A stretch of 50,465 nt of DNA from a phage, in the sequence record NC_105618.1, one strand, 5' to 3'. Below are positions 11,150-50,447 of this stretch, piece after piece (positions within the stretch are counted from its first letter, which is position 1; each line of letters starts with the position of its first letter). The position numbers were made by a program, and so were the translations under genes. The notes beneath the pieces are model-generated. The model was not told the DNA's origin, made no database searches, and worked only from the letters and a program-made list of their open reading frames with translations.

Positions 11150-14023
11150 ATGGTTGATAAGGTAGCAGGTATATCGCTTGACGTTGATGTGTCGACAGTA
11201 CAGCGCGCCGTCAAGTCATTGAAAGAGTTTTCAAAAGCTAACGACCAAGCCGCTGACTCTATGGGGTCTTTAATCAATGAGGCCGAGGTTGCAAAACAGA
11301 AGGCTAAAGAACACGCTGAGCAACTTAAGCGCCAGCGCAAAGAGTACGAGGCTGTAGAAAAGGCAATCGATCCTACAGTTGCAAAAATGGAGAGGTTAAA
11401 AGTTGCTTCCCAGCAGCTTGATAAACTCTGGCAGCAAGGCGTCGTTCCAGATGACACGTTTTTCCGTTTAGGTGAAATGCTGGATATGCAAAACGCAAAA
11501 CTTGCTCGCAGTCGGGCGATGCTGACGGAAGAAGGTCAGGCGGCATTGCAGGAAGCGAAAGCAAAAGAGCAGGCGGCAGCACGAAGCAAGGCATTCATGG
11601 ATGCCCTGAATGGTCAAGTTAACGCGATCGGAAAGACTCACGCTGAATTGATGGAACTGAAAGCGGCTGAGCTTGGCTTATCGAAAGAAGCAGCGCCACT
11701 AATCGCAAAACTGAAAGATCAGGGTCGGGCAATGAATGCCGCAGGTATTAGCGCAGGGCAATATAGGCAGGCAATGCGAATGCTTCCTGCACAGATTACC
11801 GATGTCGTTACATCTCTTGCGTCCGGTATGCCAGTTTGGATGGTTGCCATCCAGCAAGGCGGTCAAATCAAGGATTCTTTCGGCGGGATCGGCAACACGT
11901 TTAAGGTATTGCTCAGTTATATTAATCCGGTCACAGCAGGTATTGGTGTTCTTGTCGGCTCTTTAGGTCTTCTTGCGAAAGCTGGTTATGACTCTTACAA
12001 GTCAATCACTGATATGCAAAACGCTCTCATTGAGACTGGCGGTTATGCAGGCGTTACGGCTGATGACCTTGATTCTGTTGCCAAAAAGATCGCACAGACA
12101 AGCAACTCAACCGTTGGAAGTGTTCGTGATATTGTAACGGAGTTGGCTAGTTCTGGTAAGTACACCCGCGAGCAGATCAAGAACATCACTAAGGCGACGG
12201 CTGAGTGGTCGGCAGCAACTGGAAAATCAGCAAGCCAAATCATTGCTGAGTTCGACAAAATCGCAAGCGATCCGGTTAAAGGTCTGGAGAAGTTAAACGA
12301 ACAATATAACTTCCTGGAGAAAGGACAACTGACATATATCGACACGCTAAGCCGCACTAAGGGTGAGACTGAGGCGGTGTCTGAAGCCACGAAATTATTC
12401 GCAGAAGTTATGGAGAAGCGAATGAAGTCGATCGCAGACAATGCCACACCTCTTGAAAAAATGTGGAACGATATTAAGCAGTGGTCCTCTGATGCGTGGG
12501 GATGGGTAGGGGATCATACTCTCGGGGCGCTTAACCTGATTATTGATGTGGTTCAGGGTACAGTGATTCAGGTAAAAATGATTCTTGCGAAAGGTGATGA
12601 GTACATATCAAACTTTATCGCATCTGCAATCAAGGCCACGCAATCCCTGCCTGGCATGAGTGATTTTGGTGCTGATGTGCTGAAGGAGCAGGAGAACATA
12701 GTAAAAAGTTCTCGCGACAACTACGACCAGTTGGCATCCGAGCTTGACGCCATTAACGCTCGTGTAGAAAAAGGAGAGATGGGATACGTTGAAGCGATGA
12801 AGCAGCGTCGCACTCTTGAAAAGCAGTACAGTGAGGAAACTAAGGAAGCAATAAGGAAAGAAGCGGAAGAGATCGAGAAGCGAAACAGAGAACGAAATAA
12901 GCAGTCGAAAATTGTACGTTCACCGACAGAGCAATTCGACAAGGAGCTAATTTCACTCAAAGCGCAGCTTAAGGTTTTGCAGGAGCACAAGGAGATCGGG
13001 CAAAAACTTTCCGCACAGAGAAAGGCGCTTTTTACGACCGAGGCTACGATTGCTGTTCTTCGTGAAGCCAGTTCTAAGCGTCAGTTGTCTACGGAAGAAA
13101 AAGCACTACTTGCAAACCAGGAGAAAGTTTTAGAGCTTGCGAAACAGAAGGCTGAGATTGGCGATCAGATTGTTAAGCAGCAGCAGTTGAACGCTCTTAC
13201 CGATAAATCACTGAAATTTGTCAATGATTTGACGGCAGCTACAGAGCAGCTAAACGCGTCTCGCGGGATGAGCACCCGAGAAATGGAACGACAAGCTGAG
13301 TTAGCTAAGATCACCACTGATTATATTAATGCAGGTGGCAGCGAAGGAGATGAGAAACTCCAGAACATGATCAAGGCACAAAATGATTACTATGCCGCTG
13401 AAGATGCCAAGCGTGCTGACTGGTTGGCAGGTGCTGAAAGCGCATTTGCAGATTACGGCGATTCTGCAATGGATATGTATGGTAACGTATATGATATCGC
13501 GTCAAGTTCACTTAACGGAATGAGTGATATGATGACCCAATTCCTGACTACAGGTAAGGCAAACTTTGAGGACTTTGCGAAAAACATCATTAGCATGATT
13601 ATAAAGATGATTGCTCAGATGGTAATCTTCAATACGATCTCAGGCATGATGGGCGGTAAGACGTGGAGCTTTGCTGGAGTGGCGTCGTCTGGTGCTTCTG
13701 CGGCATCACAGGCAACCCCTACGCCTGCCGCCTCCGGTTTTAGGTCTTTATCATCTGGCGTTGCTGTTACCTCGCTTGCTGCCGCAGCTGGTAGTGTAGC
13801 AACATCTGGATTTAACGCATCTAAAGCAGCGCCGAAGGCAGTAAACCAATCAGCAGGCGGGACGGTCGTTGACGTTAGGGGTATGGAGGTTAAAGTTGAC
13901 AACGGTTCAGATCCGAGAGGCATTTCTCAGGGTGTAGAAATGATGTTCAAAAAAATGATTCGTGAGTCTTGTTCTCAGGGCGGTGAGGTTTATAATTACA
14001 TTCAGGAAAAAACAGGAGGTTAA
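11150..14023 (+). CDS. tail tape measure protein
   Basis: 957 aa, long coiled-coil Ala/Glu/Lys/Gln-rich regions, hydrophobic Gly/Ala segment near C-terminus. Confidence 0.9.
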
Positions 14024-47186: not shown

Positions 47187-47390
47187 ATGAAAACTATTAA
47201 CGGAATGAGCAACGAAACGAGAACGCAGATCGTTAACATGCTAATCGGTATGGCTGACGATATTCAGAATAGCCAGGTCGTTATTGATTCATGCAATCAG
47301 ACTCGCGAGAGTAAATTTGAATCATCCGGCTACAAAATTGTTGAAGAAGAATTAACCATCAAAATCATTCGCGTACAGGAGAAAGCATAA
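47187..47390 (+). CDS. hypothetical protein
   Basis: track ORF; CCAATCAGAGGA leader. Confidence 0.4.
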   Translation: MKTINGMSNETRTQIVNMLIGMADDIQNSQVVIDSCNQTRESKFESSGYKIVEEELTIKIIRVQEKA

Positions 47391-47923
47391 TGGATAAAAT
47401 CACAATTTGGGGCCAGACAATCAACCTGTTTCTCGGCCCGCGCCGCGTAGCAATCTTTGACTTTGATGGTACACTTAGTGACGGATCCGGTAGACTTCAT
47501 TTGCTGCCGACAAAAGATTTGCACTTGACTGAAAGCTGGTCCGAGTTTAACCTCGCGGCAATATTTGACAACCCTATCCAAAGCACGATCGATGTGATGA
47601 ACTCTATGTTTGCCGCTGGTTATCATGTGATCATTTTAACCGGGCGAAGTGATGAGGTGCGTTACGCATCTGAGTTGTGGCTTAAGCATCACGGCGCTCG
47701 ATATGATTACCTGATTATGCGACCACACACCGATAACCGGAAAGACACAGTAATGAAAGAAGAGGCGGTGCGCGCGATCGGCATTGATAACATTCTGGCG
47801 GCCTGGGATGACTCACCGCAAATTATTCCATTATTCCGCTCACTTGGAATAACCACTTACGCTGTAGTTGACTATGGCGATAAAGTTCACGATCATTTAA
47901 AATCTCACGGGGTAGATGAATGA
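47390..47923 (+). CDS. HAD-family phosphatase (polynucleotide 3'-phosphatase-like)
   Basis: HAD motif I DFDGT; VIILTGRS and AWDDSPQ motifs resemble the T4 Pnk phosphatase domain. Confidence 0.65.
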   Translation: MDKITIWGQTINLFLGPRRVAIFDFDGTLSDGSGRLHLLPTKDLHLTESWSEFNLAAIFDNPIQSTIDVMNSMFAAGYHVIILTGRSDEVRYASELWLKHHGARYDYLIMRPHTDNRKDTVMKEEAVRAIGIDNILAAWDDSPQIIPLFRSLGITTYAVVDYGDKVHDHLKSHGVDE

Positions 47924-48031: not shown

Positions 48032-48604
48032 ATGAAAACAGCTATCATTTTAAACGGTGCGCCTGGTGCGGGAAAAGACACTATAGGGTGCATCCTGGCT
48101 GACACTTACGATCATGTAGCGCTACGCAGCTTTAAAGCTCCAATGTTTGAGATTGCCCGAGCAATCTTGGGTGAGACTAATTTCGAGTATTTCATGTTCT
48201 TGTATGAGGACCGTCGCTATAAAGAAGAGCCAGCATCAATCCTGAACGGTAAAAGCCCACGCCAGTTTATGATCTGGATTAGCGAGGAGGTCATCAAGCC
48301 GCAGTTCGGAAATCGCTTCTTCGGTATGCGAGCGGAAAGCAAGGTGAAAGAGTCGCACTCCCTTTCGGTATTTACTGACGGTGGATTCAAAGATGAGATC
48401 CTACAAATGATTGAAGGTGATATCCAGGTTAAGCTATGTCGAATCCATCGCAACGGTTGCAGCTTTGATAACGACAGCCGAGACTATATCTATCTTGACG
48501 ATATGATCGGGGTCAACGGTTATCAGGAATGTGACTTCTTTTCTGTCGAAGGCCATCCAGAAATTACCGCTCAGCACATAGCCGCCACGTTCATCAACAA
48601 GTAG
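48032..48604 (+). CDS. P-loop kinase (polynucleotide kinase or dNMP kinase-like)
   Basis: Walker A GAPGAGKDT. Confidence 0.6.
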   Translation: MKTAIILNGAPGAGKDTIGCILADTYDHVALRSFKAPMFEIARAILGETNFEYFMFLYEDRRYKEEPASILNGKSPRQFMIWISEEVIKPQFGNRFFGMRAESKVKESHSLSVFTDGGFKDEILQMIEGDIQVKLCRIHRNGCSFDNDSRDYIYLDDMIGVNGYQECDFFSVEGHPEITAQHIAATFINK

Positions 48605-49227: not shown

Positions 49228-49457
49228 TGTTCGGTTTAAGCGAGGCGGAGTGGAATGTTGTAAAGCGTGCCGCGAAAGAATTAAACAAATTCGTCAGCGG
49301 AATGAAGAAAGAAGATCGCAAGAACGATAAGATCATGATTGATGTAATCTCGACTCACCACAAAAAGGTCGAGCCACTCATCGACCGATATAAATTTGTA
49401 TGGACTGCCGGGTACATTGCTGGGCGCGTAGGGAACAAAGAAGGGGATTACGAATAA
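49227..49457 (+). CDS. hypothetical protein
   Basis: track ORF, GGGAGAGG RBS. Confidence 0.4.
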   Translation: MFGLSEAEWNVVKRAAKELNKFVSGMKKEDRKNDKIMIDVISTHHKKVEPLIDRYKFVWTAGYIAGRVGNKEGDYE

Positions 49458-49660
49458 TGGCTAACTTACCGAAGAAAGGCGAGCAGGTTCGATGTGTCAC
49501 TTCACGCAATAGCGATGCTTTCTCTGCTGGTTGTTCTTACGATGTGGAAAAGGTTAGTAAAGCAAAGAGACTCGTATATGTGTACGGCGACGATGGAAAC
49601 TTGCATGAGATTGATTACCCGCAGGATATGACTAAGGGACAATTCGAAATTAATGATTGA
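49457..49660 (+). CDS. hypothetical protein
   Basis: AAGGGGA RBS before in-frame ATG 49457. Confidence 0.35.
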   Translation: MANLPKKGEQVRCVTSRNSDAFSAGCSYDVEKVSKAKRLVYVYGDDGNLHEIDYPQDMTKGQFEIND

Positions 49661-49824
49661 CCTGAATCGCTGAGCGGTGATAGTATTAATCCCGTAGACA
49701 GACGAGGCGCAAAGAAGCGCAACGCGTGAGACGATTCTCACACTTCCAGCTAACAAGCTCGGTTGCATAGTGGTTAAGCAACGCCGCAGACCCGTAAGCG
49801 GCAACAATTCCAGAGGATTGCATA

Positions 49825-49986
49825 ATGCAAAATATCAAAGACGAATCAGTCAAAATCGAAATTAAAGTAACTCGCAACGGCAAAACGACTCGTTATAAAA
49901 AGCGGTTAAATCCTGGAGAGGCCGTTATTGGTCGCATCGATGGCGTTATGATTAAGGCGCAAGAAGATGAAGCGATTCAAAGTTAA
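49825..49986 (+). CDS. hypothetical small protein (53 aa)
   Basis: GAGGA RBS; not in track; approximate coordinates. Confidence 0.3.
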   Translation: MQNIKDESVKIEIKVTRNGKTTRYKKRLNPGEAVIGRIDGVMIKAQEDEAIQS

Positions 49987-50153
49987 ATTAATCATTCGAA
50001 AGATGGGGATGTTTTGCCAATCATGCAAACAATCTTTCGAGACTGAATTATCAGCAACCAGTCAGGCAGAAGCCATCACGAAAGCAAAAAAACTTTCCGG
50101 CGCTAACCTTGACACTCACAAAATAAATATTGAATTAATCAAGGAGATTTAAC

Positions 50154-50381
50154 ATGACAATTTTTTTATTGATTATCGCTGGTGTCGTTATTTTTGGTGC
50201 TGGTTTGTTTGCTTGCTTCGTACTTGTGGCATACGCAATGGCTATGGAAGCGAAGGATAAAACTGGTGTATGGCTAACCTACTCTCCCAAGAAGGACCAA
50301 TGGGAAATGATTGGCGACCTTGCTCACTGTTACTCTAAAGCACGGCTTCACCATAAAGGAATTAAACGACGATTGTCGTGA
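50154..50381 (+). CDS. small membrane protein
   Basis: N-terminal TM helix MTIFLLIIAGVVIFGAGLFACFVLVAYAMAM; AAGGAGA RBS; terminator downstream. Confidence 0.4.
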   Translation: MTIFLLIIAGVVIFGAGLFACFVLVAYAMAMEAKDKTGVWLTYSPKKDQWEMIGDLAHCYSKARLHHKGIKRRLS

Positions 50382-50389
50382 TAAACACT

Positions 50390-50413
50390 AACCCGCTTCG
50401 GCGGGTTTTTTTA
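50390..50413 (+). terminator. intrinsic terminator
   Basis: ACCCGC-TTCG-GCGGGT hairpin then T7. Confidence 0.7.
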
Positions 50414-50424
50414 TGCCTGCAATA

Positions 50425-50447
50425 TGGTAAAATAGCAATAAATGTTA
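50425..50447 (+). promoter_or_regulatory. extended -10 promoter plus palindromic operator upstream of gene at position 1
   Basis: TGgTAAAAT followed by TAGCA-N5-TGTTA, then AGAGGA RBS completed by ATG at position 1. Confidence 0.45.

Follow-up and report, generated by a model that had tools for sequence, protein, structure and literature searches.

What is encoded in the gap between two small genes at positions 49661-49824 of the phage sequence record NC_105618.1? The window, meaning the whole stretch of 50,465 nucleotides that was analysed, comes, to judge by similarity, from a T1-like phage of the genus Tunavirus (Drexlerviridae); BLAST aligned its final 1.2 kb with Tunavirus phages (T1, ADB-2, ISF002, Shfl1 and others) at 92-94% identity. 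A first-pass annotation of the window had described the gap as free of open reading frames (ORFs), with several short inverted repeats and a segment resembling the D-arm of a tRNA, and had proposed that it could encode a small structured RNA. The layout is as described there: the gap is bounded by the stop of a 67-aa gene (TGA 49658-49660) and by the ATG of a 53-aa gene at 49825, and all of the inverted repeats are present.

Our findings indicate, with high confidence, that this locus carries a conserved promoter followed by a structured RNA element. The element spans 119 nt on the + strand (49692-49810) and is composed of a 5' tail, the hairpins H1, H2, H4 and H5 and a 3' tail. Covariation, purifying selection and the conserved promoter directly upstream all support the proposal of a small structured RNA; in this regard, the element appears to be a family-wide, covariation-supported RNA with its own promoter, new to Rfam 15 and to the searchable literature. 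Although it lies near the end of the window, the element precedes the small terminase gene terS by about 0.8 kb, the genome being circularly permuted: terS (1-525, + strand) is the first gene of the window, and the late genes follow it on the + strand up to about 20 kb.

The description of the gap as ORF-free is true only in the comparative sense. Mechanically, minus-strand ORFs of 101 aa (49502-49807) and 65 aa (49686-49883) do extend over it. No reading frame stays open across the gap throughout the relatives, and in several lineages all six frames are interrupted by stops. Both minus-strand ORFs are unconserved and should not be annotated, and the idea of a hidden protein-coding gene was rejected, as no frame is conserved among lineages. 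Annotated relatives have no feature within the gap, the GenBank record of T1 being limited in this region to ribosome-binding sites and terminators.

Covariation and purifying selection

The structure of the element was established by comparison between lineages. For H1 and H2 we used a plain MAFFT alignment of the first 56 nt of the element in 27 lineages, from which RNAalifold recovered both hairpins unguided, with changes on both sides in all 8 predicted pairs. Across nine specified pairs, 87% of the cells are paired, versus 59% in shuffled alignments (none of 500 shuffles reaches the observed value) and 20-57% in controls in which the pairing was slid; doubly changed cells number 66, versus 21 in the shuffles, and double changes occur in all nine pairs. 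MAFFT misaligned three Rtp-like rows, which account for most of the unpaired cells. Both-side changes were found in all four pairs of H1 and in all five counted pairs of H2, and the H1 stem itself appears as GCGC/GCGC, GCCC/GGGU, GCCAC/GUGGC, CGGC/GCCG, GCUC/GAGC and CCAUC/GAUGG.

MAFFT failed on H4 and H5 owing to their differing loop lengths, and 20 lineages were therefore aligned by hand with N padding, the columns being confirmed as kept. In this alignment 99.5% of the cells are paired, a figure that is an upper bound given the manual alignment, compared with 62% in shuffles (0 of 500 reaching the observed value) and 28-42% in slid controls. Double changes occur in 8 of the 10 pairs (4 of 5 in H4), with up to four pair types at a position. 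The variety of the stems is plain in the raw sequences: H4 occurs as GUUGC/GCAAC, GUUGG/CCAAC, GGGC/GCCC, GUGC/GCAC, GCUAU/AUAGC, GAGG/CCUC and GUCG/CGAC, and H5 as GCCGC/GCGGC, GCCGU/ACGGC, GGGGG/CCCCC, GAGGG/CCCUC, GCGGG/CCCGC, GUGGG/CCCAC, CCCGG/CCGGG and GCUGG/CCAGU.

About 15 G-U cells in H1, H2, H4 and H5 would be A-C mismatches if read from the other strand. Taken with the common direction of promoter, terminators and tRNAs, these pairs argue for an RNA made from the + strand. The fold and a set of unpaired motifs, namely the CGUAGACA.A.GAG tail, the AACG junction, the H2 loop CGAU and the H5 loop CCGUAA, are under selection as + strand RNA.

Selection is also visible within the genus. 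Among 17 distinct Tunavirus sequences, nucleotide diversity of the element is 0.032, versus 0.13-0.27 at the third codon positions of five flanking ORFs (0.004-0.09 at first and second positions), so that the element varies 4-8 times less than neighbouring third positions. The sites that do vary lie in the promoter spacer, at one position of the tail and in the H1 loop, the latter being the most variable part of the element.

Anatomy of the element

The RNA starts with a single-stranded 5' tail, CCGUAGACAGACGAG (49692-49706), conserved as NCGUA(G/A)ACA.A(A/C)GAG from Tunavirus to Webervirus. It is followed by H1, which the first-pass annotation had missed (GCGC 49707-49710, loop AAAGAA, GCGC 49717-49720), and by the junction AACGC (49721-49725), in which AACG is nearly invariant in the MAFFT alignment. 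H2 consists of GUGAGA (49726-49731), the loop CGAU and UCUCAC (49736-49741), and its loop, (G)CGAU(A), is kept in most genera. A variable linker (49742-49761) comes next, with a length between genera of about 10 to more than 130 nt, and a conserved UCGG anchor (49759-49762) straddles its boundary with H4. H4 (GUUGC 49762-49766, loop AUAGUGGUUAA, GCAAC 49778-49782) is directly abutted, with no linker, by H5 (GCCGC 49783-49787, loop AGACCCGUAA, GCGGC 49798-49802), whose loop ends in CCGUAA, nearly invariant across lineages. The conserved 3' tail AACAAUUC (49803-49810) closes the element; 2 nt after it, as annotated in T1, starts the Shine-Dalgarno sequence AGAGGA (49812-49817) of ORF-A, the gene with its ATG at 49825, whereas in other genera the tail is followed, at a distance of 2-4 nt, by a tRNA.

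Three of the four repeats that had been named in the gap, H2, H4 and H5, are thus kept by compensatory substitutions across genera. The GAGACGATTCTC repeat within 49728-49739 corresponds to H2, and GCCGC...GCGGC (49783-49802) to H5; both covary. The D-arm-like segment TTGC-ATAGTGGTTAA-GCAA (49763-49781) corresponds to H4, and here the stem covaries but the D-loop-like loop is limited to the T1 and NBD2 lineages, the loops elsewhere being CCGTGA/CCGUGA, GCATGGCG, ATTGTGAAA and TATCAGG/UAUCAGG (RNA spellings GCAUGGCG and AUUGUGAAA). The fourth repeat, CGCTGAGCG (49668-49676), differs from these: it falls within the spacer of the promoter, most close relatives carry disrupted versions of it (CCCTGAGCG, TCTCTGAGCG), and few sites of the region vary more. 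Two further local hairpins were rejected as well. The AGCU/AGCU hairpin in the linker (H3, 49748-49759) has no comparative support, as it is unconserved outside Tunavirus and a C-to-A change in DELF2 breaks the stem with no compensation, and a hairpin over the ribosome-binding site (CAAUU/GAUUG, 49805-49820) is also unconserved outside Tunavirus.

A rearranged form of the element is found in the phiEB49/AHS24 lineage. In phiEB49 (locus L144, 1546-1705) it consists of the start ACGUAGAC, a hairpin ACGG/CCGU, AACG and H2, with a second copy resembling the tail, GGGUAAAGAUACGAGG, some 90 nt later, ahead of H4 and H5. This arrangement suggests that the element of this lineage arose with an internal partial duplication.

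The promoter

The region immediately upstream of the element contains a near-consensus sigma-70 promoter (49657-49686), TTGACC-18-TAGTAT with a TG extension. The -35 hexamer TTGACC (49657-49662) overlaps the TGA stop of the upstream 67-aa gene, and a spacer (49663-49677) separates it from the extended -10 (49678-49686), composed of TG (49678-49679), a single A and TAGTAT (49681-49686). The window thus has the TTGACA-like -35, the 16-18 nt spacer, the TG and the TAnnnT that define a sigma-70 extended -10 promoter, and the pattern TTGAC-N16-TGNTANNNT occurs once in 50 kb, versus 0.07 occurrences expected.

The promoter is conserved along with the RNA. TTGACN, a 17-18 nt spacer and TAnnnT are kept in 34 of 35 lineages and, in those that bear the promoter, the distance from the end of the -10 to the first conserved base of the element is always about 5 nt. 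When NBD2 and LF82-10 are aligned with the window, they share TTGAC-N17/18-TGnTAnnnT, followed by conserved blocks that alternate with hairpins, the stems of which differ in sequence yet remain complementary. Within Tunavirus, the spacer has the highest nucleotide diversity of the non-coding segments measured (0.139). Taken at face value, these features predict that a strong bacterial-type promoter heads the element, and its geometry would place the transcription start at about 49693-49694.

Distribution of the element

A sensitive BLAST search with the gap retrieved 75 phage records, in which similarity of the gap equals or exceeds that of the flanking genes; in ISF002, the gap is 100% identical, versus 94% for the flanks. 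A covariance model (R1), built from ten sequences, was then searched against 67 loci retrieved via their terS gene. It matched 41 further loci (E from 1e-29 to 0.04), all on the + strand and all 0.5-1.2 kb upstream of terS. In the window, its single significant match is 49692-49810 (E 8e-37), the next having E = 2.1. Counting the R1 matches and 14 T1-like loci with the exact 5' motif, the element is present in 55 of 55 Drexlerviridae loci with upstream sequence; the R1 search did not find it in seven loci that hold only distant terS relatives. R1 also matches a short form in Webervirus and a form in Pantoea phage AAS23 (Sauletekiovirus), and BLAST distinguished variant classes in Henuseptimavirus-like phages (Henu7), Hanrivervirus (haarsle), Klebsiella phages (RCIP0096), and phiEB49/AHS24-like and Rtp-like phages.

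Scanning IMG/VR, JGI metagenomes and GTDB genomes for exact patterns yielded T1-like phages and chance matches, and nothing bacterial; the diversity of the element came to light only through retrieval of terS loci and the covariance model. The possibility of a copy derived from the host was considered and set aside: no BLAST match was found in 5,426 E. coli genomes, a search that short targets would escape, and a 20-base pattern over 185,579 species genomes gave only chance matches in GC-rich metagenome-assembled genomes.

The covariance search against Rfam that the first-pass annotation had called for returned chance matches only. Rfam 15 yielded, for window positions 49300-50100 at E up to 10, snoRNA and RalA matches far under their gathering scores and, for 12 diverse loci, tRNAs only. 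Full-text searches on non-coding RNA, transcriptomes and promoters of Drexlerviridae and T1 found no description of the element, subscription-only papers, including the 2004 genome paper of T1, being outside their scope.

A side observation concerns host assignment. A set of 21 UNVERIFIED 'Campylobacter phage' records with C. jejuni given as host (for example locus L183, MG065641.1) are Hanrivervirus genomes with the coliphage element and ORF-B, and their host label looks doubtful.

The transcription unit and its variation among genera

In the window, the element is followed on the + strand by ORF-A (49825-49986, 53 aa), ORF-B (49967-50152, 61 aa) and ORF-C (50154-50381, 75 aa, with a hydrophobic N-terminus), and then by an intrinsic terminator, AACCCGC-UUCG-GCGGGUU plus a U run (50390-50415), about 50 nt before terS. 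A canonical terminator is located 50-110 nt before terS in nearly all of 31 lineages scanned, and 170-430 nt before it in three Rtp-like loci. ORF-B, universal in the family, has homologues between the element and this terminator in 25 of 25 lineages, and in 821 deposited phage genomes altogether; all of the small proteins nearby belong to PHROG or DUF families that have no assigned function. The conserved module consists, therefore, of the promoter, the RNA element, an optional tRNA or ORF-A, ORF-B, an optional ORF-C and the terminator.

What comes directly after the element differs among genera. In class A, Tunavirus, IME347 and locus L057 have a ribosome-binding site and the 53-aa ORF-A, and NBD2 and LF82-10 have a tRNA-Ser(GCU). 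The element leads into a ribosome-binding site and ORF-B in class B (Ec_L1-like) and class C (Klebsiella RCIP0096-like), into a tRNA-Arg (CCU or UCU), with or without Trp and Val, in class D (phiEB49/AHS24-like, L172), and into a tRNA-Arg(UCU) in class E (Rtp-like). In classes D and E, the tRNA begins 2-4 nt past a tail ending in CAUUC, and in about 14 loci overall a tRNA-Arg, tRNA-Ser or tRNA-Trp stands 2-4 nt after the tail, where cleavage by RNase P would create a processing junction. Class F (Hanrivervirus and Henu7-like, 16 loci) has H2, a ACAACAAC linker and a GC-rich stem of 7-9 bp enclosing CCGUAAGA, which together with the following 4-8 U forms an intrinsic terminator ahead of the ribosome-binding site. 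The short form of Webervirus is made up of the tail, H1, GCCCC-loop-GGGGC with a U-rich run, a weaker terminator, and the ribosome-binding site of ORF-B.

Function of the element

Considered as a whole, the locus is best explained, if only tentatively, as the head of a small transcription unit that carries a control leader recognised by a factor. According to this model, host RNA polymerase with sigma-70 would initiate at the promoter (49657-49686) and produce first the 119-nt non-coding RNA domain, and transcription would proceed through ORF-A, ORF-B and ORF-C to end at 50390-50415, just before terS. The leader would be bound by a phage or host protein, or by RNA polymerase itself, and would set the amount of expression that passes into the downstream genes. 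In Tempevirinae and Webervirus the last hairpin is itself an intrinsic terminator, giving an attenuator geometry; genera with the terminator would release the domain as a discrete RNA of about 100 nt, and those with a tRNA as one of 130-240 nt.

Since the unpaired motifs are the best-conserved parts of the element, something, be it a protein, RNA polymerase or another RNA, probably reads them. That control is exerted in cis is a possibility that we entertain with caution; it is favoured because the element always heads one operon, because it touches the ribosome-binding site in T1 and because, in the most populous genera, a terminator stands at its end just before the first ribosome-binding site. 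We infer the accumulation of the RNA, the binding of a factor and the direction of control from sequence.

Several observations weigh against this model. The folding energy of the gap taken as a single sequence is unremarkable (z = -1.67 on the + strand and -1.88 on the - strand), which is no better than chance, the evidence for structure being comparative, and the alignment of H4 and H5, being curated by hand, is biased towards structure. The start site and the accumulation of the RNA are predictions only. The AACAAUUC that follows H5 in the window includes no U tract, so that the T1 version does not look like an attenuator; the intrinsic terminator at the end of the leader that characterises attenuators and riboswitches is found in class F and, weakly, in Webervirus. 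Inspection of the genera with a terminator (class F) found no conserved anti-terminator pairing, and a test for pairing of the H2 loop with sequence further downstream gave a weak result (summed p = 0.023, with no correction for relatedness) at positions that did not agree, so that a pseudoknot of this loop with the UCGG anchor or the terminator strand was not accepted. Moreover, in genera with a tRNA, a cut by RNase P would sever the leader from the mRNA, so that control of translation in cis cannot be universal, and the linkage with ORF-B may be no more than a product of the strong synteny in these phages.

The main rival is a stand-alone small RNA that acts in trans, either by base-pairing through a seed in the 5' tail or as a decoy that sequesters a protein, with the downstream ORFs merely sharing its promoter; we regard it as rather unlikely. 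The strong promoter, the conservation of loops and single-stranded segments, and the discrete 3' ends expected in more than half of the lineages (a terminator with 4-8 U, or a tRNA 2-4 nt on) speak for it, as do the A/C-rich linkers (ACAACAAC) and the U tail, a combination resembling that of Hfq-binding small RNAs. However, the T1-like, Ec_L1-like and class C Klebsiella versions lack a 3'-end signal and continue into a ribosome-binding site, and phages that share E. coli as host disagree at 3-4 positions of the putative seed (CCGUAGACAGACGAG in T1, CCGUAAACAUAAGAG in Henu7, GUGUUUACAUAAGAG in haarsle and ACGUAGACAAACGAG in Rtp). Nor has the tail any complement within 3 mismatches in the phage genome, where a lone GTCTACGG at 13087 has no extended match; BLAST showed no similarity in E. 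coli genomes, a search that short targets would escape. Mimicry of the 3' end of 16S rRNA (AGUCGUAAC / AACCGUAG) was also discarded, the shared words being no more frequent than chance predicts in six of seven lineages (p 0.13-0.86) and the remaining lineage giving p 0.04 for a different word.

A processive antitermination site of the nut or put type, whose nascent tail and hairpins would load onto RNA polymerase, with or without a phage protein, and allow it to read through the leader and pre-terS terminators into the 20-kb late operon, has much in its favour by position. It would account for a conserved RNA structure adjoining a promoter, present in a single copy per genome, 0.5-1.2 kb upstream of terS and the + strand late genes, with a strong terminator between element and terS in every lineage and with tRNAs or ORFs tolerated in between; in addition, Drexlerviridae are not known to encode an RNA polymerase of their own. 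We nevertheless judge it improbable, as none of 35 lineages has a boxA-like GCUCUU(U/A) between the start of the element and terS, no protein resembling N or Q was identified, and hairpins of 4-6 bp with variable H1 loops are unlike the two long stems with a triplex of put (PMC9378689). Past the operon terminator, the -10-like TGGTAAAAT (50425-50433) could drive terS independently. This + strand extended -10-like sequence has no good -35, and the equivalent place in Hanrivervirus reads CTGCAAT-TTGTC-TATAAT; it may be the late promoter.

The remaining readings account for less of the data. Hairpins near an mRNA 5' end and next to a ribosome-binding site, with stems kept while several loops vary, could be a passive stabiliser or insulator that shields the message from RNases with no specific recognition, but the first 15 nt are unpaired and would protect poorly, conservation is highest in the unpaired motifs (tail, AACG, CGAU, CCGUAA, AUUC), and the element persists where a tRNA, not an mRNA, follows, all of which makes this quite improbable. 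A signal at the level of DNA, such as a pac site, an origin or an operator, would fit the adjacent terminase genes and the two copies of CCGTA (49692 and 49792); compensatory changes in the hairpins, G-U pairs on the + strand only, the shared orientation of promoter, terminators and tRNAs and the lack of a GC-skew switch at the gap render it very improbable. That the locus is a decayed tRNA gene is barely credible. It is true that H4 with its loop AUAGUGGUUAA and the 5-bp stem of H5 resemble a D-arm and an anticodon stem, and that the slot next to the element holds genuine tRNA genes in other genera. Yet, as the first-pass annotation itself had remarked, T-arm and acceptor stem are missing; ARAGORN calls no gene in the window and the Rfam tRNA model (RF00005) has no match at E up to 10, whereas both detect the real tRNAs adjoining the element in other genera. 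In addition, the H5 loop has 8-10 nt, the D-like loop is lineage-specific, the tRNA genera carry the element upstream of an intact tRNA, and the strong purifying selection argues against a relic. As for a BLAST match to the annotated tRNA-Ser of NBD2, most of it falls in the leader that precedes the tRNA, and it extends over only about 12 nt at the 5' end of the tRNA itself.

A bolder reading is that all Drexlerviridae, T1 included, share a hitherto unrecognised nascent-RNA switch which, possibly together with the ORF-B protein, reprograms host RNA polymerase or termination where the early genes meet the packaging and late genes, and which yields an abundant small RNA in some genera. We consider this reading unlikely.

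Comparison with known systems

By analogy, the element would seem to work most like a promoter-proximal phage leader RNA or the tRNA-linked small RNAs of T4, although it is a member of neither group. It resembles the nut and PR'-6S RNA-tR' regions of lambda in having a single-stranded segment and small hairpins after a strong promoter, terminators downstream, and a position upstream of packaging and late genes. It differs from a lambda-type nut site in the lack of the boxA consensus CGCUCUU(U)A (GCTCTT[TA] in 0 of 35 lineages), in its H1 loops, which vary where the boxB hairpin has a conserved loop, and in the lack of an N- or Q-like protein identified among the neighbouring Drexlerviridae proteins. 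The lambda Q system acts through DNA, and the fold of lambda 6S RNA is not known to be kept by covariation.

Like the put RNA of HK022, a type that can act on its own polymerase, the element is a nascent RNA structure at the very start of a phage transcript. However, put is an RNA of about 70 nt that starts at +3 and has two long stem-loops, bulges and a triplex in stem I (PMC9378689), whereas the Drexlerviridae element is a 15-nt unpaired tail with four hairpins of 4-6 bp, shows no sequence similarity to put and does not have its architecture.

Species 1 and 2 RNAs of T4 are small stable RNAs made together with phage tRNAs. The Rtp-, phiEB49- and NBD2-like elements are similarly located 2-4 nt upstream of a tRNA; element and tRNA belong to one unit and, therefore, release of the element would be expected from tRNA processing in these genera. 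The element is not related to the T4 RNAs in sequence or structure, and T1 has no tRNA at all. Enterobacterial small RNAs of the RybB or OmrA/B type have a 5' seed and an intrinsic terminator, and the RNA predicted for Tempevirinae, of about 100 nt, with an unpaired 5' end, hairpins, an A/C-rich linker and a U-tailed terminator, is similar to them; the differences are a seed that varies among the phages of one host, a T1 version lacking the terminator and the absence of any target found. As to tRNAs, H4 and H5 are locally like a D-arm and an anticodon stem in the T1 and NBD2 lineages only, and the element fails every detector and is devoid of T-arm, acceptor stem and 7-nt anticodon loop.

T1-like phages count among the commonest phages of E. 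coli and Klebsiella, and are both therapy candidates and laboratory contaminants. They depend wholly on host RNA polymerase. In this regard, a family-wide structured RNA at a strong promoter before the packaging genes offers a handle on expression timing that can be tested by mutation, and adds an RNA family missed by current annotation pipelines and by Rfam.

tRNA genes in the slot after the element

Five tRNA genes, Ser-GCU, Arg-UCU, Arg-CCU, Trp-CCA and Val-AAC, are found directly after the element in different genera (L150, 1849-1936; L168, 1976-2053; L144, 1708-1861; L146, 2012-2166; L172, 1780-1857), at the place where T1 has ORF-A. This suggests repeated, independent capture of tRNAs: unrelated tRNA genes would have come to occupy one slot time and again because the locus is highly transcribed and untranslated. 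Extra weak or oversized tRNA-like matches (Rfam tRNA scores of 41 and 26 bits) are also present after the intact tRNA-Arg in an Rtp-like phage (L168, 2060-2158) and in L172 (1893-1952), and these matches in Rtp-like phages and L172 may be decaying or intron-containing tRNAs.

Two + strand genes located 1-2 kb upstream of the gap, within one + strand gene run, encode a homologue of polynucleotide kinase/3'-phosphatase (47390-47923, so annotated in phage Chapo) and a dNMP-kinase-like P-loop protein (48032-48604, phrog_139). The polynucleotide kinase of T4 functions in tRNA repair and, by analogy, the upstream homologue may be relevant to the tRNA cargo of the sister genera.

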